From the NCBI GenBank assembly GCA_030523245.1, contig JAUNIW010000003.1:1023-65022 (forward strand): a stretch of DNA of 64,000 bases, read 5' to 3'. This stretch comes from Pseudomonadota bacterium (GTDB lineage Bacteria; Pseudomonadota; Alphaproteobacteria; RF32; CAG-239). The translations under genes were made by a program, and so were the position numbers. Position 1 is the first letter of the stretch. Every line of letters starts with the position of its first letter. This document shows positions 19,383-28,859 of this stretch, in pieces. The notes beneath the pieces were generated by a model. It was not told where the DNA came from and ran no database searches. It saw only the letters and a list, made by a program, of their open reading frames with translations.

Positions 19383-20318
19383 ATGAAGCTGGCATTTTTT
19401 CAAATTATCTGGAAAACCTTAATTCTGATAGAAAACACGTTTTCATATTGGCGGACATATATGTTTTATGCTTTGCTGATAACCATAATTTCAGCCGGTT
19501 TGGGACAGTGGGGTTTATCCTGCATGACAAATCAGGATAAAGCATGGTGCTTTATCTCAATGCAGGATATAAATTTTTGGTCGTTTTTTTATGTTTTGAA
19601 TTTATGCTTAAAAATATTTATATGGCTGTTATTCTGCTATGTTTTATATGAGGAAATGATTCATCGGCAAAAGATGAGTTTTTGGGAAATTAAAAACTTT
19701 AATAAAGGAAGTATATATAAAATAGCGGCGCTGTTTATATCTGCTTTTCTTTTTGTGGTGCCGATAGCCGCAGCTTTTATTATTTTTACCAAAAAAGCAA
19801 ATCCGGATTGGCGGATAGAAGCCGTTTGGTTTTTGATAACGTTTATCTGTTGCTGGCTTCCGTTTTTGGTTTTGCGTTTTTCGGCAGGGATAAGTTATGT
19901 TTTAGACAAGCAGGAACTGCCGCCTTTTAAAAAAATATGGGTGACGACGGAAAATAATAATTTTAAAATTATCTTTGCTTTTTGTCTTTTTCTTTTGATT
20001 ATGAATATTTTTGAGTTGCGTGTTTCTTCTTTTCTGAAAGATTTTTATAAAACCTATAAAAATTTTGTCGTTGCTTTTGGTGTGGAATTTTTGAATAATT
20101 TGGTGAATTTGGTGATTGTTTCCGGATTTTTGATGTTAACCCGCGCTTTACAACTGCTCATCCTGCCGGAAAATCCGAGTCCGCAGGAAGCACCAGCAAA
20201 GCCTTTGCCGCAAAAAAATGATACAGCGGAGCGCAAAACAGAAAAAACAGCCTCAGGAGTCAAAAAAACGGCAAAGAAATCAAAATCAACTAAAACGAAA
20301 AAAAATAAGAAAATATAA
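19383..20318 (+). CDS. Polytopic membrane protein with Lys-rich C-terminal tail, hypothetical
   Basis: Starts 1 nt after the dnaE stop. Has several Trp/Phe-rich hydrophobic segments. The last ~55 aa are P/K/T-rich (KKTAKKSKSTKTKKNKKI). Confidence 0.6.
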   Translation: MKLAFFQIIWKTLILIENTFSYWRTYMFYALLITIISAGLGQWGLSCMTNQDKAWCFISMQDINFWSFFYVLNLCLKIFIWLLFCYVLYEEMIHRQKMSFWEIKNFNKGSIYKIAALFISAFLFVVPIAAAFIIFTKKANPDWRIEAVWFLITFICCWLPFLVLRFSAGISYVLDKQELPPFKKIWVTTENNNFKIIFAFCLFLLIMNIFELRVSSFLKDFYKTYKNFVVAFGVEFLNNLVNLVIVSGFLMLTRALQLLILPENPSPQEAPAKPLPQKNDTAERKTEKTASGVKKTAKKSKSTKTKKNKKI

Positions 20319-20329
20319 AAAACAGATAT

Positions 20330-20460
20330 CCGCCACTAAAGCGGAGGGTGTCCATCTGCTATGAACCTCACGGTTTGACCACGCTCGTTGGCGTGGAACG
20401 GTGTCCAACGACACCTTTGCGTTCAGCCACCGATAAATCAGGGGTTTTCTGTAAGGCAAC
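20330..20460 (+). ncRNA. Candidate structured small RNA or cis element (unclassified); strand assignment tentative
   Basis: Markedly GC-richer than its surroundings. Hairpins are CCGC/GCGG (20330-20344), CCACGC-TCGTTG-GCGTGG (20379-20396) and GGTGTC-CAAC-GACACC (20400-20415). The 7-mer GGTGTCC is duplicated at 20347 and 20400. A terminator follows at 20465. Confidence 0.3.
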
Positions 20461-20464
20461 TAAT

Positions 20465-20497
20465 AAAAAAGTTTTCCGTTGAAAGGAAAACTTTTTT
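20465..20497. terminator. Bidirectional rho-independent terminator between convergent genes
   Basis: A-run, then GTTTTCC-GTTGAAA-GGAAAAC hairpin, then a T-run at 20492-20497. It would serve both the + strand unit and the minus-strand coupling-protein operon. Confidence 0.75.
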
Positions 20498-20569
20498 ATA
20501 ATAACAGGGATTAAATGAAAAAGTAATTGCAGGACTATATCCGAGAAATACAGCTGATAACTTTGCTTT

Positions 20570-22789
20570 TTAAGCTACAGGTTCATCAGCTTCAAAATTA
20601 TTATCGCCCTCTTCAGTGTCCGGATCATATTCAATTCCCAGTTTTGCCAGCATATCATCGTTGATATCTTCACGCTGGGCCACAATCCAATCCGGCACAT
20701 TCGGGCAAGGCGGAATTTTAGCCATTTTTTTCATTTTAGGGTCAAGATACCAACGCGGCGAATCGGCAATAATCGGGCGGTCGATATAACTTTGCATCAA
20801 AATAACCTGTTTCAACATCGGCAGACTTAACAATTGTGTCGAGCTGATAACCGGTACGCCTTGTAATTGATAGTTAACGTTTTTAGCCAATGGGTTAAAG
20901 TCTTTTCCCAGACTGCCTTCAGTTCGGGAGAAAGAAGAAACCTCAATAGTCTTATTACCAATCATCTTGGAAAAGCGTTGGGCGGTAACTTCGTTATTTT
21001 GGGATAAAATGATTTTGCAGGCCGTTGTGGAAATAACGGTTTCCAAATCATCTTTACCATATTTTCCGGAGATTTGGCCTAAATCTTGTCCGATTAAAAG
21101 ATAAGAAACTTTTTGTCCGCGGCCGACGGCAGGTCCGTCAATAATGGCTTTCATTTTAGGCATTTGCGGAAACTCGTCCAGAATAAACAGGGCAGGGAAC
21201 GGCCCCATTTTACCGTCTGTACGGTTAACGTGATTTGGCGGATTGGAAATAAGATAAGATGACATCAATTCAATAAATGTACTGCTGATAACACCCAAAG
21301 CCCGAGCATCAACCTGGTTTACGGAAAGATAAACGGAAATCGGTTTCCAGACACCGGTTACCGGATCTTTCATGCCGCGCAAATCTTTAAATTGAATATC
21401 CGAGAAGCTTGTACGCGCTTTAACGGCTTGGTTCTTGAAACATCCGATACCGGCAAAAGCGGTGGAAAGTACGGAGCCGCGCTCTTTATCAGGCATACTG
21501 CTTAAAGAACTGAGTTCTGTAATACAGCGTTGGGAATAGCCAAAATTACGAGCTTCTTTAACAGCTTCTTCCAACATGTCATGAGTCGGATCAGCCATGG
21601 CAGCCATCTGGTCACCTTCATCCATTCGCCGTTGTATTTCTTGCGCCGCGTTAATCTGAGCTTCGGTAATCCATTCCATAATCATGGCAATACAGGCTTC
21701 ACGTCCCATCCAGCGTGACGGCAGCAAATTCCAGGTTCCGATTGGCAGATAATTTTCAATAGTCAGTGTGCCGTTTTTCAGATTCTGGATAGCACGGGGT
21801 GCAGCCGGATCACGCATTTCCATATAATAGCTTTCCAAGACTTCTTTGTCTTTAGCATCCAGCTTTCCTTCGTAAATACGACCGATAAAATAATCATTTG
21901 CACGGGCGCGGTCACATTTTGAGGCCACAAAGTTAATAAAGCCGGTCAGGGCAGCACGGCCGGTATTAGCCCAGTGCGGGTCAGCACCGCCTTTCGGGTC
22001 TTCTACCAGAATATTGCACATAGAATCGACATACATATCACGATCAGGGCCCGCTTCCGGCATAGAATTCGGTGACAACGGATTCCAGCTCGGATAATAG
22101 ATACCTTCGCTCGGATTATCTTCCGCACCCCAGTTGATAATAAAGACGGGACCGACTTTGGCTCGTGCACCGCTGGTTGAATAACAAAGTTCCGGTTTCG
22201 GGTCATTTACGATAATGCTCAAACCATCGGAATTGAAAATTGTCGGGATAACAACGCCGGCAGTTTTACCGGTACCCGGAGGTGCGCAGCAAAGGGTAGA
22301 CAGCGTTTCTTTTAACATTAAGAAGCGTCCTTTGAATTTGCCGACGACCTGACAAAAGCCGTCAAAGCCGAGCAAGGCCATTTTGTTAATATCCCTCAGT
22401 TCTGCTATTCGTGCCGAACCCTGAGTATTTAATTGGAATTTATACGGGCTGAGCAGAGAGCCGACAATCAAACCGACCGGAATTGTAATAAACGGCAGAA
22501 TCGGAAGCCACAAGCTGAGTGAAAAAGATCCTTTGTAATGAATAAGTTGTTTAAACCATTTAACATACATAGCCCATAAGTGGTCCGGTTTTTCGACAAT
22601 AAGTGCCAGAAATTTATTTATCATATCAAAGGAAGCCTTTGATACACCATGACCAACCAGATATGATAAAGGCAGTGCAAATATAAAGAGTGCTACTGTT
22701 AATCCCAAACAGATAAAGAATGTAATCAACATCCAGTGGACGGCATTGTCATATTCTTTCCATTCTTCTCCACGTTCTTTTAAAGCCAT
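20570..22789 (-). CDS. virD4: Type IV secretion coupling protein (VirD4/TraG family ATPase)
   Basis: N-terminal TM helices; Walker A CCAPPGTGKTAGVVIPT; family motif GGADPHWANTGRAALTGF; Walker B LFILDEFPQMP. 739 aa and intact. SD GAGG lies upstream of the ATG at 22789. Confidence 0.85.
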   Translation of the reverse strand: MALKERGEEWKEYDNAVHWMLITFFICLGLTVALFIFALPLSYLVGHGVSKASFDMINKFLALIVEKPDHLWAMYVKWFKQLIHYKGSFSLSLWLPILPFITIPVGLIVGSLLSPYKFQLNTQGSARIAELRDINKMALLGFDGFCQVVGKFKGRFLMLKETLSTLCCAPPGTGKTAGVVIPTIFNSDGLSIIVNDPKPELCYSTSGARAKVGPVFIINWGAEDNPSEGIYYPSWNPLSPNSMPEAGPDRDMYVDSMCNILVEDPKGGADPHWANTGRAALTGFINFVASKCDRARANDYFIGRIYEGKLDAKDKEVLESYYMEMRDPAAPRAIQNLKNGTLTIENYLPIGTWNLLPSRWMGREACIAMIMEWITEAQINAAQEIQRRMDEGDQMAAMADPTHDMLEEAVKEARNFGYSQRCITELSSLSSMPDKERGSVLSTAFAGIGCFKNQAVKARTSFSDIQFKDLRGMKDPVTGVWKPISVYLSVNQVDARALGVISSTFIELMSSYLISNPPNHVNRTDGKMGPFPALFILDEFPQMPKMKAIIDGPAVGRGQKVSYLLIGQDLGQISGKYGKDDLETVISTTACKIILSQNNEVTAQRFSKMIGNKTIEVSSFSRTEGSLGKDFNPLAKNVNYQLQGVPVISSTQLLSLPMLKQVILMQSYIDRPIIADSPRWYLDPKMKKMAKIPPCPNVPDWIVAQREDINDDMLAKLGIEYDPDTEEGDNNFEADEPVA

Positions 22790-22797
22790 TTTATCCT

Positions 22798-24228
22798 CTA
22801 CTTAATATTTTTCAGAACTTTGCGTAAACGATTAAGCTCTTTAGTGTCAATTTGCTCATCGGCTTCATCAATTGTCTTTGAAAACAGCCTTATTTCTTTT
22901 GGTGCGCCGCGATTGATGCGGGTGACATCAATATCCATATTATTCCAAACTTCAAACATATCATCAGCGTTGATAATATTAGCCATTTGAATAATAACAT
23001 ACGATTTGATTTCTTGTTCAAATTCTTCTTCAGCCAGTTTATCACGAATAATATTACGTGCAACATCTAATTTACGGACCGGTGAAATGCGGTGGCTGTT
23101 TTCAGAAAACCACAAAGGTTCTTCGCCGTTAAACAGTTCTTCGTCAGCCAGCCAGTCACCGGCTTCTTTATCTACCAGACACAGGCAGATTTCTGTTTCG
23201 GAAACACCGATGAAGTCAATGATTGTATTACCGACATGAATGCCGTTGATAACATCATAACCTTTTTGTTGCAAAATTTCCAGAACAGGACTGCGCGGCT
23301 GGGTATTAGCCGGAGATTCATCGGAAATATTATTATCGGTCCGGTTGCGGTTTTGCTTATCTGTGCGGTTATCTTTATTTTGTTTGCCGTTTTTGTTGCG
23401 ATTGTCTTTGGAATCGCGTTTATTTTTAGGCGAAGAATAATCATCATCTTCATCATCATAGGAAGACTTTGAATTTTTGCGACTGTTTTCTGTATTATCT
23501 TTTTTATTTTTACGAGGTTTTGCCGGTACGTCCTCATCCTCGTCCTCATCATCCGCGACAGGTTTAGACTTTTGTGGTTTTTTCTTCAAAATATCGGTTT
23601 TTTCAAAAGAATCGATATCTAAATCAAAGTCATCTTCGTCATCGTCAAATTTGAACAAGGCATGGTCAATAGCTGCCGGCACAACATTTTTCTTGGCAGC
23701 CGGTGTTGGTGCAGGCTGAGCCGGTCCTGCTGTACGAATTTGTGAAGGCATGGCAGCAACAGAAACGGCAGCCGGCGCGGAATTACCGTCGGCATAATCG
23801 GAAATCGGCATTCTGAAACCGCCGACGCCTGCCGGCCGGATTTGTTTATATGATTTCTTTTTGACCACACCATATTTATTGTTTGTTTTAATAACATTGA
23901 TTGGTGCTTTTATTAAACGCCGGTAAAGCGTAACCGGAAACATAACGGCATCATAAATGAGACGCTCCCATTCAACCATGCAAAGAGTCCACCATCCCGT
24001 AATAAGCATCGGGAAGAAAGTAACCAAGATGATGACAAAAGCCCATTCTTTCGGCGCGCGGATAACCCAGCCGGCTTTCCATAAAGCATAAGCCTGCCGC
24101 CAGTGATCCGGCCAAAAAATATCAAAGTGCCAGTTGCAGAGCATAATAACGCGGATACCTTCAATGAAGACAATGCTCCACAGGCAGCCGACGATGATTA
24201 TTCTTGCAAAGACAATTAAGGATTTCAC
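22798..24228 (-). CDS. Operon orf4: membrane protein with long charged low-complexity linker and NERD/PD-(D/E)XK-like C-terminal domain
   Basis: GTG start with GGAG upstream. About 100 aa of W-rich TM domain, then about 200 aa of P/A-rich followed by D/E/K/N/R-rich sequence. The C-terminal 164 aa (22801-23292) follow a NERD-like pattern (IIDFIGVSETEICLCLVDKEAGDW...SPVRKL). Confidence 0.6.
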   Translation of the reverse strand: MKSLIVFARIIIVGCLWSIVFIEGIRVIMLCNWHFDIFWPDHWRQAYALWKAGWVIRAPKEWAFVIILVTFFPMLITGWWTLCMVEWERLIYDAVMFPVTLYRRLIKAPINVIKTNNKYGVVKKKSYKQIRPAGVGGFRMPISDYADGNSAPAAVSVAAMPSQIRTAGPAQPAPTPAAKKNVVPAAIDHALFKFDDDEDDFDLDIDSFEKTDILKKKPQKSKPVADDEDEDEDVPAKPRKNKKDNTENSRKNSKSSYDDEDDDYSSPKNKRDSKDNRNKNGKQNKDNRTDKQNRNRTDNNISDESPANTQPRSPVLEILQQKGYDVINGIHVGNTIIDFIGVSETEICLCLVDKEAGDWLADEELFNGEEPLWFSENSHRISPVRKLDVARNIIRDKLAEEEFEQEIKSYVIIQMANIINADDMFEVWNNMDIDVTRINRGAPKEIRLFSKTIDEADEQIDTKELNRLRKVLKNIK

Positions 24229-24282
24229 CCGCTTTACTCCAGTTCTTTCTTTTTAATATAACCCGAATTTATAAAGAGATTG

Positions 24283-24771
24283 TTAATTGATTTCATTTTC
24301 TATCTTCTCTATAATTTCTTTCCGGAATTTTGCCGTATCGGTTTTCGGAATTTTTTTGTTTTCCTGTTCTATACGTTCCTGAACAAGTTGTTCTATGGTT
24401 TTTTTCTCTTCTACTTTCAGATTTTTAATATTTACTTCCGGCATCCCGCCATTATATTTGCCCAGTCCGATATTCGAGAGCCAGCTTAAAGGTTTTGAAA
24501 TAAGTTTCAGATAAGAATATTTTGCCAAGAACTTCCAGCCGATGAATACAACCGGAAAATAAGTAAACATACCGAAAATCATCAGCAAATCTCCTGATTT
24601 CAGAATGCCGCCGTTATTCCAGAAATTCCCGATTGTTTTATAAGTTAAAGGCGATACAATATCTATCTGATAAAAATAAAAGAACACAAACTGATATAAT
24701 AGCAGTAAGGCAACGCTCCAAACGCTGCCGGCTGCCAAAACGCAAATATAATGGAGCAGTTTTTTTATCAT
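24283..24771 (-). CDS. Operon orf3: small membrane protein, paralogous to the N-terminal domain of orf4
   Basis: ATGA overlap with orf2. Residues 1-80 align almost without gaps to orf4 residues 1-80 (GxxWS, DIxxP, WxxG, T[FY]FPxxxxGW). The C-terminal tail is E/K-rich. Confidence 0.6.
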   Translation of the reverse strand: MIKKLLHYICVLAAGSVWSVALLLLYQFVFFYFYQIDIVSPLTYKTIGNFWNNGGILKSGDLLMIFGMFTYFPVVFIGWKFLAKYSYLKLISKPLSWLSNIGLGKYNGGMPEVNIKNLKVEEKKTIEQLVQERIEQENKKIPKTDTAKFRKEIIEKIENEIN

Positions 24772-26735
24772 CGGCCGGATTTATCCTTTATATTGCTGTA
24801 AATCTGGTTGACAACATTATTTGTTTTTTGTGAGAAATTCTCAAAAGATTTACTGCCGAAAACTTTATCTTTCCACTCATTGAGTCTTTGTTTTCTGGCT
24901 TGTACATCTTCTCTTGACATAGAATTTTCGGCTTTGATGGCTTCAAGTTGTCCGGCAGCCGCTTCAATAGGCGATTGGGTGTTCATTTCGCGTGCGGCCG
25001 AATTCAAATCATGAGGCTGCTCTCTTTTATAAGTATCGTAGATGAGGGCATCTCCTAATTTATCCATATCTGAAAGTCTTGAGAATTCTTTGTAACTTTT
25101 CTTTGATTCGTCAGATAAAGGTTTGTTTGAATTAGATTCTTCTTGAGCGGCATTTTTATCCAAATCAACAGACAGATGTTGCCGGCAGTCTTCGATTCTT
25201 TCCATATATGATGTCAGATAAGCTGCGGTAAAATCAGCCTTTTTCTGTTCAATTTGTTTAGGATCGGTTATGCCTTCTTTTTTCATTCTTAATTCTACAT
25301 ACAATGCACCTTTTTCCAGATTTTCCTGCAGTTCGATTTTTCTCTTCAGCGTTCTTTTTTGCAGGTCGGCATGTACTTCTGCATCACTCAAATCAAGGGT
25401 TTGTTCTATCTTTCCCTTATTTGCTTTTTCATAAATAAAGTCAACAGCAGCAGCCGTACTGCTCAGACGGTCGATTGTGCTGTTGACCTGCTGAACTTGG
25501 TCAGAATTTTTTAATAGAGAGTCGATTTTGTTTTTCAATTGCTGCGGATTAGCTTTATATTCCTGCTTTAATTTCTCAACAAAAGAGTTTGCCTGAGGGT
25601 TGTTCATATCAATTTGCTGCCATTGGGCATTCGGATTGCCCAGATTCCGGCTGATTTCATTCCACATAGCACGGCGCTGATTGTTCGAAGCTTCATATTG
25701 GTTATGCAGTTGTGCCGGACTTTGGAATAGAATCTTCCGACCTTTTTGAGCAAAGTCTTCTGAATTCTGTTTTTTCTGGTTTTGCTTTGCTTTTTGCATT
25801 TTATTAAAATTTTTAAGAGATTTTTCGCAAAGAGCATCAACACCGGCACAGGCCAATCCGACTGATTTATTGATGGTCCAGCTCAAAGCAGCCAAAAACC
25901 ATTCATTATACATATATTCAATAATATCTTGTTCTCTGATTCGGCTGCCTTCATAACCGCTGCCTTTTTTCTTGTCTTCTTCCGGAGCATCTTCAACAGT
26001 GGCTTCGTTTATATCGTCTTTATTTTCAGGTTTTTGTTCTGTTTTGACTTTTAAAGCTTCTTTTTGTTTTAAATTCACTTTCAACGGAGCCTTTTCCTGC
26101 CCGCCGACTTGTAAACCGTTTTCCTCATCATTGACGGATACATGCAACGCATTGGATTTGCCGTTTCTGCCAAGAGGATTTGAATTTCCGTCGGCATCTC
26201 TGGTAACACTGAGAAGTGCAATATTTTCAATTGTTTCCCCTTTTGCATTTGGCTGATTCATCGGTACGCCGAGTTCTTCCATTTTTGCAAGGGCGTCCGT
26301 ATATTTTTCATGGTTTTGTTGAAATATCTGCTGGTCACTTTCCGGCAGATTCGGGTCAGGTGCGCGGTCAATATTTGCTTTATCATAGGCGGCAACAGCC
26401 TGTTTTGCTACAAAAGAAGCGAAAGTTTCACCGTCTTCGGGATTTTGGGAGCTTAAAAAAGCTTCTAATTGGGCGCTGTCAATAAGACCGTAAGCTTCCA
26501 TGCTTTTTAATTTTTGCAGAGTTGTCATCATTTTATCAACAGGAACCAGTCCCATGCTTTTTTCATCTTTGGCTCTGGGCGGAAAAGTGTGTTTTATAAA
26601 TTCTTCGGAATTCAATAAATTCGGGGCCTTATTGATAATTGCGGCAAGATCTTCTATGGAGGCATCATTTTTAAGCGCTTCAAAAAATTCGGCAACAACT
26701 TTTTTTTCGTCCAGTTGTTTAATATCCTCAGCCAT
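24768..26735 (-). CDS. Operon orf2: large hypothetical protein (~655 aa) with Q/N/K/E-rich coiled-coil C-terminal half
   Basis: The ATG at 26735 is preferred because AAGGAG lies 8 nt upstream; the track start is 26768. No family recognised. Confidence 0.6.
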   Translation of the reverse strand: MAEDIKQLDEKKVVAEFFEALKNDASIEDLAAIINKAPNLLNSEEFIKHTFPPRAKDEKSMGLVPVDKMMTTLQKLKSMEAYGLIDSAQLEAFLSSQNPEDGETFASFVAKQAVAAYDKANIDRAPDPNLPESDQQIFQQNHEKYTDALAKMEELGVPMNQPNAKGETIENIALLSVTRDADGNSNPLGRNGKSNALHVSVNDEENGLQVGGQEKAPLKVNLKQKEALKVKTEQKPENKDDINEATVEDAPEEDKKKGSGYEGSRIREQDIIEYMYNEWFLAALSWTINKSVGLACAGVDALCEKSLKNFNKMQKAKQNQKKQNSEDFAQKGRKILFQSPAQLHNQYEASNNQRRAMWNEISRNLGNPNAQWQQIDMNNPQANSFVEKLKQEYKANPQQLKNKIDSLLKNSDQVQQVNSTIDRLSSTAAAVDFIYEKANKGKIEQTLDLSDAEVHADLQKRTLKRKIELQENLEKGALYVELRMKKEGITDPKQIEQKKADFTAAYLTSYMERIEDCRQHLSVDLDKNAAQEESNSNKPLSDESKKSYKEFSRLSDMDKLGDALIYDTYKREQPHDLNSAAREMNTQSPIEAAAGQLEAIKAENSMSREDVQARKQRLNEWKDKVFGSKSFENFSQKTNNVVNQIYSNIKDKSGR

Positions 26736-26808
26736 CTTTATTACTCCTTTATAAATATATGATATCAATATACCATAAAAAAATATTTTTGTCTATATTG
26801 TTTTTTAA

Positions 26809-27783
26809 CTAAACTTTGAGTCTTTTCAAAAAGTTACCGATTTCCAAATTGATGCGGATACCGTCCTGAGGCGTCACTTTCAACAATCCGAACCAGCGCG
26901 GTTTGATTTTACTGAAATCAATCGGCGCAAAAATAGCCGGATTTGTGGTCAGAGCCTGAAAGGCACCGTTTACATCTTTTTGTGCCACACGGAAATAATT
27001 GCTTATAAGGCGGTCGGCATCGACCGGAAAATTCTTTTGGGCCAATGCTTCGGTAAATTTGCGTTGTCTTTCTTTTCGGGCCAGATATTCTTCATACATC
27101 AGGCGTTTAATGTGTTTTTCCTGATATTTTATAAATTTGGCCTGATAAGACAATTCGCAGCTTTCGATATCAATCAGGATTTCAACATAAGAGATAACAG
27201 CCAGTTGTAAATCTGCATTCGGAAGATTTTCAGCCAGATTCAATAAGGCTTCATCTGACGATTTAAGCGGAAAATTTCCGAGTTCCTTTGGAAACATTTT
27301 TGTCAGCAGCAGCCACCCGTTGACAACATCGTCAGACAGAATTTTACCGGTGCTGGGTTTATAATTCGGATACAAATCATCAATTTCAAAAGAACATTGA
27401 TACGATTCGTTTAAATAAATACCCGCCAGTTTGTTTACGGAATTATAAAAATTTAAAAAGGCCTGAGCCAGTTCCGATTCGTCACTGCCGAGCATCGGCT
27501 GGTTTTGACTCTCCTGAGCTTCCGTTTTGGCATCTTGAAGCGATGAAACCAAAGCAGCATCCAGATCTTCATCGGTTATTGTGGCGTTAATCTCCTGTCC
27601 TTCCGGACTGAGCTGGGCAGCATAGTCAACAACCTCGGTATCATTATTTTTGGCCGGCATGTTTGAAACATGAGTATTCTCGTCCGTAGCGGAGCTGTCC
27701 GGTTCATCATCTCCGGCATCATTGATAAAGCTGTTAAGCAGTTTTTCAAAATCATCATCTTCTAAAATATCATTATCAGCCAT
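26809..27783 (-). CDS. Operon orf1: hypothetical protein (~324 aa) with strongly acidic N-terminus
   Basis: The ATG at 27783 (MADNDILEDDDFEKLL) is preceded by AGGAG. The track ORF extends to 28221, but that part runs antisense through rluD and is unlikely to be translated. Confidence 0.6.
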   Translation of the reverse strand: MADNDILEDDDFEKLLNSFINDAGDDEPDSSATDENTHVSNMPAKNNDTEVVDYAAQLSPEGQEINATITDEDLDAALVSSLQDAKTEAQESQNQPMLGSDESELAQAFLNFYNSVNKLAGIYLNESYQCSFEIDDLYPNYKPSTGKILSDDVVNGWLLLTKMFPKELGNFPLKSSDEALLNLAENLPNADLQLAVISYVEILIDIESCELSYQAKFIKYQEKHIKRLMYEEYLARKERQRKFTEALAQKNFPVDADRLISNYFRVAQKDVNGAFQALTTNPAIFAPIDFSKIKPRWFGLLKVTPQDGIRINLEIGNFLKRLKV

Positions 27784-27847
27784 TTTTTTCTCCTGAAATC
27801 GGATAAAATCTTTGACTTGCATTTGCGGGCAAGACTTATTAAGGTGC

Positions 27848-27855
27848 ATTATAAT
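27848..27855. promoter_or_regulatory. Palindromic ATTATAAT giving a TATAAT -10 hexamer on both strands of the divergent intergenic region
   Basis: Sits in the 98-bp gap between orf1 (minus) and rluD (plus). No convincing -35 on either side. A nearby 5-bp inverted repeat CTTGC...GCAAG lies at 27816-27833. Confidence 0.3.
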
Positions 27856-27881
27856 ACACTGATACTTAAAAAAGGCTAAAA

Positions 27882-28859
27882 ATGAATAACGAAGAAACAA
27901 TATATTCAACTCCCGAAGCGTCTCCGGCCGATAAAAATTTACGTCTGGATAAATTTTTGGCGCAAAATCTGCCGGATTTTTCCCGTTCACAGCTGCAGCG
28001 TCTGATAGCGGAGGGCAATGTTTTACAAGACGATATCGTGATATCGGATAATGCTTATAAAGTAAAAACGGGCGATGTTTTTCAGATAAGCGTACCGCCG
28101 GCAGCCGAAGCAGAACCGCCGGCGGAGGATATTCCGTTAAATATTGTTTATGAAGATGAAGACTTGCTGGTTGTAAACAAGCCGGCCGGAATGACGGTTC
28201 ATCCGGCAGCCGGTGTTTCACGTGGAACGCTTGTTAATGCTCTTTTATACCATTGTCGGAACAGTTTGTCCGGAATCGGCGGCATCAAACGCCCCGGCAT
28301 TGTTCACCGGATTGACAGGGAAACCAGTGGTTTGCTTGTTGTTGCCAAAAATGATGCCGCCCATCGGTTTTTGAGTGAGCAATTTGCCGAACACTCAATC
28401 GAACGGACTTATTTGGCTGTGGTGTACGGGGTTTTGCAACCGCTTAACGGCCGGATTGAAGGTAATATCGGCAGAAGTCCGGCAGACCGTAAGAAAATGG
28501 CGGTCGTGCAAAACGGCGGTAAGTTTGCGGCGACAAATTATAAGACATTGCAAATATTCAAAAAAGCAGCGTCTTTGGTGCAGTGCAATTTGGAAACAGG
28601 CCGGACTCATCAAATTCGCGTACACTTAACAAGTGTAGGAAACCCTCTGATAGGTGACAGCGTTTATGTAAAGAACCGTAAAACGGCTGTGTCCCTGCCG
28701 TCAGAATTGAAAAAATATGTAAACGATTTCCCTCGTCAGGCCTTGCACGCAAAGAGTTTAGGCTTTATTCATCCGCGAACGAAAAATTTTATGCAGTTTG
28801 ATTCTGAACTGCCGGAAGATATGAAAGAACTGCTAGAAAGGCTGATACAATCAAGTTAG
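27882..28859 (+). CDS. rluD: 23S rRNA pseudouridine synthase, RluA family (RluD-like) with N-terminal S4 domain
   Basis: Catalytic motif HRIDRETSGLLVVAK, HQIRVHL, an S4-like N-terminus (LRLDKFLAQ) and a 325-aa length. Confidence 0.9.
   Translation: MNNEETIYSTPEASPADKNLRLDKFLAQNLPDFSRSQLQRLIAEGNVLQDDIVISDNAYKVKTGDVFQISVPPAAEAEPPAEDIPLNIVYEDEDLLVVNKPAGMTVHPAAGVSRGTLVNALLYHCRNSLSGIGGIKRPGIVHRIDRETSGLLVVAKNDAAHRFLSEQFAEHSIERTYLAVVYGVLQPLNGRIEGNIGRSPADRKKMAVVQNGGKFAATNYKTLQIFKKAASLVQCNLETGRTHQIRVHLTSVGNPLIGDSVYVKNRKTAVSLPSELKKYVNDFPRQALHAKSLGFIHPRTKNFMQFDSELPEDMKELLERLIQSS

Follow-up and report, generated by a model that had tools for sequence, protein, structure and literature searches.

What do the two genes directly upstream of a type IV coupling protein (T4CP) gene encode, and could their products work together with this ATPase? 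The question is raised by orf3 and orf4, two minus-strand genes in a 64,000-nt stretch of an alphaproteobacterial genome (assembly GCA_030523245.1, contig JAUNIW010000003.1). This stretch is referred to here as the window, and all coordinates are positions in it. The genome is 1.45 Mb in size, 98% complete and contains one T4CP, which is encoded immediately after orf4. The original prediction, spanning positions 23929-24771 (the whole of orf3 and residues 1-100 of orf4), held that the two proteins share a paralogous, Trp-rich N-terminal membrane domain of no recognised family. It further proposed that a tandem duplication had produced one short and one long copy, suggesting a hetero-oligomeric membrane platform next to the T4CP. 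Our comparisons of the sequences confirm orf3 and orf4 as true paralogs. Judged by these comparisons, they are the A and B members of a two-lineage family that is undescribed in the databases and literature searched. The B member adjoins the T4CP gene, and we propose that both probably serve the T4CP as membrane partners. The two genes, their parts and the T4CP gene are laid out as follows.

orf3, 24283-24771, minus strand: 162 aa; A-type short paralog, composed of a hairpin of two transmembrane (TM) helices and a conserved E/K-rich tail.
orf3 N-terminal domain (residues 1-95), 24487-24771, minus strand: TM1, periplasmic loop helix, TM2 and juxtamembrane helix, as predicted by AlphaFold2 (AF2), alignment and hydropathy.
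orf3 tail (residues 96-162), 24286-24486, minus strand: carries the invariant motif N114-I-K-N-L-x-x-E-E-K-K-T125.
orf4, 22798-24228, minus strand: 476 aa; B-type long paralog, composed of the hairpin, a basic motif, an acidic motif, a disordered linker and a nuclease-fold C-terminal domain.
orf4 N-terminal domain (residues 1-95), 23944-24228, minus strand: 10 Trp; invariant E23-G24-x-R26 in TM1.
orf4 residues 96-311, 23296-23943, minus strand: last part of the extended TM2 helix (to about residue 105), two conserved motifs and a disordered linker rich in K, R, D and N.
orf4 C-terminal domain (residues 312-476), 22801-23295, minus strand: fold resembling NERD and PD-(D/E)xK proteins.
VirD4/TraG-type T4CP gene, 20570-22789, minus strand: 739 aa; starts 8 nt past the orf4 stop.

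The predicted homology of the two N-termini was borne out and the alignment extends over residues 1-91. BLASTP aligned orf3 with orf4 at 37.4 bits (E 9e-8), with 20% identity and 47% positives over 91 residues and one gap. All landmarks named in the original prediction are exact in the translations: G-x-x-W-S (G15/W18/S19 in orf3, G14/W17/S18 in orf4), D-I-x-x-P (D37-I-V-S-P41 and D36-I-F-W-P40), W-x-x-G (W51-N-N-G54 and W50-K-A-G53) and T-[FY]-F-P (T70-Y-F-P73-VVFI-G78-W79 and T70-F-F-P73-MLIT-G78-W79). The single one-residue indel is located after S59 of orf3. The description as Trp-rich suits orf4, with 10 Trp in its first 90 residues, but fits orf3 much less well, with only 3 in the same span.

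Two statistical checks had been proposed for this alignment, and both came out in its favor. The Smith-Waterman score of the pair is 86, against 29.2 ± 5.0 (maximum 57) for plain shuffles, none of 2000 of which reached the observed score (z 11.3). Shuffles that keep the hydrophobic/polar pattern gave z = 11.0, again with 0/2000 at the observed score. Because even these pattern-keeping shuffles never reach it, the match is not an effect of TM composition. Profile-profile comparison of 21 orf3-family with 22 orf4-family sequences gave an hhalign probability of 96% (E 4e-9) over 82 columns. In an 18-sequence alignment mixing the orf3 and orf4 families, P41, W51, G54 and P73 (orf3 numbering) are invariant.

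The shared N-terminal domain does remain unrecognised, with no Pfam or NCBIfam match at E <= 1. In these scans orf3 has one chance-level Pfam match (SpoIVA_C, E 0.19) and no NCBIfam match, while the matches of orf4 are limited to NERD (E 0.0054) and chance-level ones, all downstream of the hairpin. Searching PDB chain sequences at E <= 10 with profiles of the orf3-family alignment (A1, 21 sequences) and the orf4-family alignment (A2) returned only low-complexity noise. Foldseek comparison of the orf3 model with the PDB found nothing better than E 4.6, a value without meaning for a helical hairpin of this small size. We also considered whether the hairpin could be a copy of the T4CP's own transmembrane domain (TMD, residues 1-125). 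This was rejected, with an hhalign probability of 0.3% and E 0.21 for the hairpin alignment A3 against the T4CP alignment A4. No description of the hairpin family was found in the literature searched, and the named members that we saw are all annotated as hypothetical proteins. The domain merits its own entry in domain databases.

The AF2 models suggest that orf3 and orf4 share the same helix plan, comprising TM1, a short loop helix and TM2. The orf3 model, built on the family alignment, has helices at residues 2-34, 41-52, 59-84 and 87-100, with predicted local distance difference test (pLDDT) values of 85-94 as far as about residue 80, falling to 71-74 for residues 81-100. In the orf4 model the helices span residues 2-35, 40-51 and 59-105 at pLDDT 70-80. 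Hydropathy places the two hydrophobic segments of orf3 at residues 5-39 and 59-80. The first hydrophobic stretch, of about 30 residues, is too long for a signal peptide. Lys and Arg cluster at the extreme N-terminus (MIKK in orf3, MKS..R in orf4) and just past TM2 (K80, K84, K89 and K93 in orf3; RRLIK...KKKSYKQIR in orf4). By the positive-inside rule, this distribution predicts an N-in/C-in topology for the hairpin. The E/K tail of orf3 and the motifs, tether and nuclease-fold domain of orf4 are therefore predicted to be cytoplasmic. Conversely, the loop helix with its W-x-x-G signature and most of the ten Trp of orf4 are predicted to lie at the periplasmic membrane surface.

The module of about 90 aa has the signature G-x-x-W ... 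[WY]-x-[FI]-[DN]-[IL] ... [WYF]-x(6)-[WF]-x-x-G ... P-x(4)-G-W. Within it, the periplasmic interfacial helix is marked by W-x-F-[DN]-[IL]...W...[WF]-x-x-G and TM2 by a conserved Pro and G-W. Both proteins score as members of the hairpin family, at 127 bits (orf3) and 123 bits (orf4) against the A3 profile; with the broader profile A5 the respective scores are 113 and 93 bits. The E23-G24-x-R26 motif inside TM1 is invariant among B-type proteins (alignment A2). Its Arg (or a Lys) recurs in TM1 of most long members of both lineages, and the short A forms have no Glu there. E23-G24-x-R26 is a candidate inter-subunit contact.

Homologs of orf3 form 49 clusters at E <= 1e-25, all of 134-165 aa apart from one 100-aa fragment, and those of orf4 form 752 clusters. 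All are unnamed or 'hypothetical' and come from uncultured Alphaproteobacteria. A search of 1.84 billion representative proteins with the hairpin profile found 159 clusters at E <= 1e-3 which, evident fragments aside, fall into two size classes of about 160 aa and about 340-580 aa. The window's genome has exactly two open reading frames (ORFs) with the hairpin domain. In a hairpin tree labelled by gene position, the 27 T4CP-adjacent copies together make up one clade (B), with a Shimodaira-Hasegawa-like support of 0.80. Outside this clade are all 20 upstream copies (A) and five of the six unlinked copies, the sixth (L103) being placed at the base of the B clade. orf4 clusters with the 27 T4CP-adjacent copies and orf3 with the upstream copies. 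Within A, the 160-aa proteins make up a subclade.

These data uphold a duplication, but not one that directly yielded a short and a long copy. In both lineages, nearly all long members that are complete match a hidden Markov model of the orf4 C-terminal domain, and the adjacent A and B proteins of one distant locus (L114) are 29% identical over 315 aa (E 2e-38). The existence of full-length paralogs in distant Alphaproteobacteria argues that the whole gene was duplicated and that orf3 is an A copy which later lost its C-terminal domain, the direction of this change being inferred by parsimony. The duplication appears to be old, preceding the divergence of the carrier families, and its products need not stay in tandem. 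In several families (e.g., G023, G107 and G214) the A copy is unlinked and B alone is adjacent to the T4CP gene, both lineages being kept.

The two lineages differ in their rate of change. Across 74 species the mean identity is 32% for the A hairpin, 65% for the B hairpin, 57% for the T4CP TMD and 84% for the T4CP nucleotide-binding domain (NBD), the last being conserved like a housekeeping gene. We suggest that B stayed slow-evolving and tied to virD4, and that A evolved faster and lost its nuclease-fold domain in the lineage that includes this genome. The pair would then be a clean case of asymmetric divergence after duplication, with one copy near-frozen and the other fast-evolving and short of a domain.

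The association with the T4CP was assessed at two evolutionary depths. Scanning the T4CP alignment against one genome per GTDB species found relatives in 433 species, of which the best 80 were examined. These 80 (73-94% identity) all come from uncultured Alphaproteobacteria of the gut or rumen, Candidatus Scatocola among them. A locus was counted as assessable when at least 2.3 kb was present upstream of the T4CP gene, and five of the 80 are cut by contig ends. The gene order A (158-178 aa), B (404-513 aa), T4CP is found in 75/75 assessable species loci and is kept in two chromosomal contexts, rluD/rpoH and cysS/pnp. At one locus (L049, 3984-4455) the A copy is broken into overlapping ORFs of 81 and 144 aa, reflecting either a frameshift or an assembly error in the metagenome-assembled genome.

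For the class as a whole, we used an even sample of 401 alphaproteobacterial genomes and took T4CPs scoring above 1000 bits as orthologous. The hairpin domain occurs in 23 of the 401 genomes, which belong to about 14 families and are all 0.9-2.5 Mb in size. An orthologous T4CP is present in 22, and in 19 of these a gene with the domain lies directly or closely upstream (four of them recognised through a broader profile). The remaining three are unassessable owing to contig breaks, and none of the 22 contradicts the linkage. T4CPs at 48% identity or less to that of the window have no clear adjacent copy, G031 being marginal (E 0.002). A phylum-wide sample of 401 genomes gave matches in this genome and one other alphaproteobacterium only. 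Among the genomes sampled, the hairpin domain is thus found only in small-genome Alphaproteobacteria. The constant VirD4-like neighbour that the original prediction suggested looking for is therefore present at all 75 close loci and all 19 assessable orthologs, but elsewhere there are lone or unlinked copies, which are considered below. As a separate observation, many relatives also encode another, more divergent T4CP (about 330-750 bits to the profile), next to which no hairpin gene was detected (G057, G229, G358, G018, G199, G203, G330, G334, G107, G385, G080, G214 and G108).

The gene downstream of orf4 has the hallmarks of a VirD4/TraG-type T4CP. Pfam identifies PF02534 (E 5e-57, 194 bits against a cut-off of 20.1), TraG-D_C (PF12696; E 9e-22, 77.8 bits) and TrwB_AAD_bind (E 1e-16), and the protein has a Walker A motif (GTGKT, residues 172-176) and an N-terminal TMD. 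Spacing within the cluster is tight. The stop codon of the preceding gene, orf2, overlaps the ATG of orf3 as ATGA, with AAGGA upstream of the orf3 start. A 54-nt gap separates orf3 from orf4, which starts with GTG and has GGAG 7 nt upstream, and the T4CP ATG, after an 8-nt gap, is preceded by AGGA. A Shine-Dalgarno-like sequence is thus found at each of the three junctions (the ATGA overlap, the 54-nt gap and the 8-nt gap), and the arrangement orf2-orf3-orf4-T4CP is consistent with translational coupling.

Beyond the hairpin the two proteins differ. In the orf3 tail, the columns of the N114-T125 motif are invariant in alignment A1, and AF2 models the tail at low confidence with short helices only. 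orf4 has a conserved basic motif, N117-x-Y-G-V-V-K-x-K-S-Y-K-x-x-R-P132, and a conserved acidic motif, I187-x-H-A-L-F-K-F-D...F-D-L-D-x-D-S-F-E-K210 (both in alignment A2). Its residues 108-311 are modelled at pLDDT below 50 except for a few isolated residues, and about 100 residues are charged disorder.

The C-terminal domain of orf4 is modelled as an alpha/beta fold at pLDDT 79-92 over most of its length, with dips to 48-57. Residues 316-413 match Pfam NERD (PF08378) at 17.7 bits (E 0.0054), below the gathering threshold of 22.1 bits. PF08378 is present in the precomputed annotation of 4 of the 120 orf4 homologs listed. The long A forms match NERD at about 15 bits, and in ten divergent long members scanned with Pfam, weak NERD matches in the C-terminal domain were all that was found. 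The best Foldseek matches of the domain are PD-(D/E)xK proteins, led by SfsA (E 2.2e-3, probability 0.97), none of them at E <= 1e-3. Further matches are the N.BspD6I nickase, the R2 restriction-like endonuclease (RLE), Cap4, Card1 and BstEII. In alignment A2, residues D338, D353, K354 and E355 show full or nearly full conservation. The likeness to NERD and the PD-(D/E)xK superfamily consists of a weak match and a predicted resemblance in fold, in the C-terminal domains of orf4 and of the long A forms, and does not include the shared N-terminal hairpin. In the literature searched, we found no description of a NERD protein that has this hairpin or is linked to a T4CP.

A channel that the T4CP could serve is encoded elsewhere in the genome. 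A separate contig, C42, has a divergent VirB-type type IV secretion system (T4SS) islet at about 31.7-57 kb (L004, L005). It encodes VirB4 (809 aa), two VirB8 paralogs of 248 aa each and a VirB9/CagX protein of 567 aa with a C-terminal SPOR domain, together with a 1211-aa beta-flower/RHS-repeat protein and proteins of 1337 and 1402 aa without family matches. Since the T4SS islet is on another contig, the T4CP is detached from the channel genes and is not an orphan. Relaxases of the two families searched, PF03432 (MOBQ/P-type) and PF08751 (TrwC), were not found in the 98%-complete genome. Just upstream of the islet, on the other strand, there is a type II/IV-pilus-like gene block.

Based on these comparisons, we consider A and B to be, with somewhat better than even probability, accessory inner-membrane subunits of a VirD4-type type IV coupling complex. 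This reading is suggested by the strict and ancient linkage, the tight spacing, the retention of both lineages even when unlinked and the predicted cytoplasmic location of the variable parts. A hetero-oligomeric A/B membrane platform, as originally proposed, is plausible. In such an arrangement, the A hairpin would pack against the B hairpin, and both against the T4CP's transmembrane ring. Their tethered cytoplasmic parts would be held beside the ATPase, where they may recruit, gate or regulate substrate, and the channel would be the VirB-type T4SS encoded elsewhere in the genome.

Several observations weigh against a role as T4CP subunits or add no support for it. Mirror-tree correlations among the A hairpin, the B hairpin and the T4CP TMD are r 0.81-0.85, within the 0.72-0.89 of all other pairs. 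After removal of the NBD signal, the partial correlations are 0.27-0.53, modest values that do not discriminate, and shared phylogeny dominates. The weak conservation of the A hairpin, at 32% mean identity, could likewise be explained by a role that is relaxed or in part redundant. Three genomes (G154, G372 and G077) carry hairpin copies far from their more divergent T4CPs. A lone 348-aa member (L014, 3284-4330; GCA_965320695.1) has a cation-efflux gene on one side and pgpA on the other, and its 5.8-kb contig carries no T4CP. At L015 (7001-13768), A (408 aa) and B (373 aa) stand in the rluD/rpoH context and are followed by two ORFs unlike a T4CP, of 493 aa and 928 aa (the latter running off the contig), neither of which has T4CP similarity by BLASTP. 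Because such unlinked or lone copies exist, adjacency to the T4CP gene is not obligatory.

Other explanations were weighed against a role as accessory subunits. The most basic would deny common descent altogether and see in orf3 and orf4 two unrelated hydrophobic N-termini that share a TM composition. The identity of only 20% and the dominance of TM helices in the region would allow this. The pattern-keeping shuffles (z = 11, observed score never reached), the profile-profile match (E 4e-9) and the homology of distant pairs across 315 aa including the soluble domain nevertheless refute convergent TM composition as the source of the resemblance, and the residues that are conserved fall chiefly within the loop and at fixed positions of the helices. 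We therefore give this explanation practically no weight. Accepting homology, A and B could still act independently, each on its own (e.g., as a homo-oligomer) and without forming a hetero-complex, or A could be decaying or redundant with B as the sole partner of the T4CP. In keeping with this, hairpin conservation is 32% for A against 65% for B, A has no C-terminal domain in this lineage and can be unlinked from B and the T4CP, and B alone always abuts the T4CP. However, A is intact at 158-178 aa in 74 of the 75 assessable species (it is split in L049), and its tail motif is invariant within the family. Decay is also hard to reconcile with the persistence of the A lineage across many families even when unlinked. 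Independent action, or an A that is decaying or redundant, seems doubtful to us.

A different possibility is that B, helped by A, is not a structural or regulatory partner but a membrane-anchored nuclease or nickase of the PD-(D/E)xK type. B would then act in place of a relaxase and pass DNA on to the T4CP to be released, taken up or transferred, with the hairpin as a mere anchor. The predicted restriction-endonuclease-like fold of the C-terminal domain (Foldseek matches to SfsA and N.BspD6I), the weak NERD match, the strong conservation of the domain, long A forms included, and the failure to find PF03432 or PF08751 relaxases in the genome all speak for this possibility. On the other hand, the NERD score is under the Pfam cut-off, the Foldseek E is weak at 2e-3 at best and the relaxase search covered two families only. 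The short A form, from which the domain is wholly lost, is still kept in 75/75 loci. We regard such a DNA-processing role as improbable, and prefer to see A and B as accessory subunits of the coupling complex. An extension of this preferred reading, bolder and itself a long shot, is that the A/B hairpins and this unusually conserved chromosomal VirD4 make up an unrecognised kind of coupling complex fixed in small-genome host-associated Alphaproteobacteria. Here a tethered PD-(D/E)xK-fold domain, ancestrally in two copies of which one was reduced to hairpin plus docking motif, would replace a relaxase or adaptor as substrate receptor or processor, and an A/B hetero-hairpin would be obligate in the T4CP transmembrane ring.

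Among known systems, the best analogue for how A and B might work is DotI/DotJ of the Legionella pneumophila Dot/Icm type IVB system, a homologous long/short pair of inner-membrane proteins that are 26% identical (PMC11474061), compared with 20% for orf3 and orf4. DotI and DotJ form a 2:1 hetero-complex, need one another to be stable, and with their cytoplasmic parts constitute the membrane receptor for a T4SS ATPase, the VirB4-like DotO (PMC11474061). The likeness is that of a homologous long/short T4SS membrane pair. Unlike A and B, which are 2-TM hairpins with C-terminal parts predicted to be cytoplasmic, DotI and DotJ cross the membrane once, as type II proteins, and have C-terminal domains that are periplasmic and VirB8-like. 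They also bind the VirB4-like DotO, whereas A and B are linked to a VirD4-like T4CP. That A and B are themselves DotI/DotJ-VirB8-like proteins was rejected on the basis of the two TM helices (AF2, hydropathy) and the predicted cytoplasmic location of their C-terminal parts. Nor was any relationship to DotI/DotJ found at the sequence level; in Pfam, VirB8 (PF04335) matches two other genes of the genome and neither orf3 nor orf4.

T4CPs form coupling complexes together with auxiliary 'D4Aux' proteins (PMC12857230). As possible auxiliary T4CP partners for substrate recruitment, A and B resemble DotM (IcmP) and the other subunits of the Legionella coupling complex (DotL-DotM-DotN-DotY-DotZ-IcmSW). 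DotM has a membrane anchor, and its gene lies directly upstream of that for its T4CP. The T4CP here differs in being of the VirD4/TraG (PF02534) type, and its partner is a duplicated pair with a nuclease-fold domain. Homology of orf3 or orf4 to DotM/IcmP was rejected, with nothing related found in Pfam or NCBIfam at E <= 1 or in the PDB profile search at E <= 10. The Rickettsiales vir homolog (rvh) T4SS offers a further comparison, being a system of small-genome Alphaproteobacteria with split T4SS islets and a duplicated component. The window's genome is similar in having split T4SS islets, two VirB8 and a chromosomal, vertically inherited VirD4.

How T4CPs dock on the membrane and secretion channel is called unresolved in a recent review (PMC12857230), and so is the question of which auxiliary subunits serve them outside Legionella. 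Auxiliary membrane partners of T4SS ATPases are already known as a kind; the A/B family itself is new in the databases and literature searched. As a compact, strictly linked and deeply conserved putative membrane-partner pair for a VirD4-class (type IVA) ATPase, A/B is a concrete and testable candidate for a coupling complex outside Legionella, carried by abundant uncultured Alphaproteobacteria of the gut and rumen.

The T4CP gene, orf4 and orf3 form, with two genes further upstream, a cluster of five co-directional minus-strand genes. The remaining two are as follows.

orf1, 26809-27783, minus strand: 324 aa with an acidic N-terminus; opens the operon and is divergent from rluD.
orf2, 24768-26768, minus strand: 666 aa, in the same operon; its stop overlaps the orf3 start.

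Neither orf1 nor orf2 has a family match in the Pfam and NCBIfam scans. At three other loci (L006, L008 and L010) an unassigned gene of 472-638 aa precedes the A copy, in the position of orf2. At two of them (L006 and L010) a gene of 291-298 aa occupies the position of orf1 in the rluD/rpoH context, a counterpart by position alone. L006 also has a staphylococcal-nuclease-like gene (PF00565; 12140-12601) directly downstream of the T4CP gene and convergent with it, which is absent from that place in the window. A promoter consensus scan of positions 20200-28300 returned promoter-like sites at chance number and so gives no support for or against internal promoters. Terminator-like sites in the same region are in modest excess, with 15 found against 9.1 ± 2.6 expected. 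Between the T4CP stop and a convergent membrane-protein gene (19383-20318), terminator-like hairpins are present on both strands at 20329-20415.

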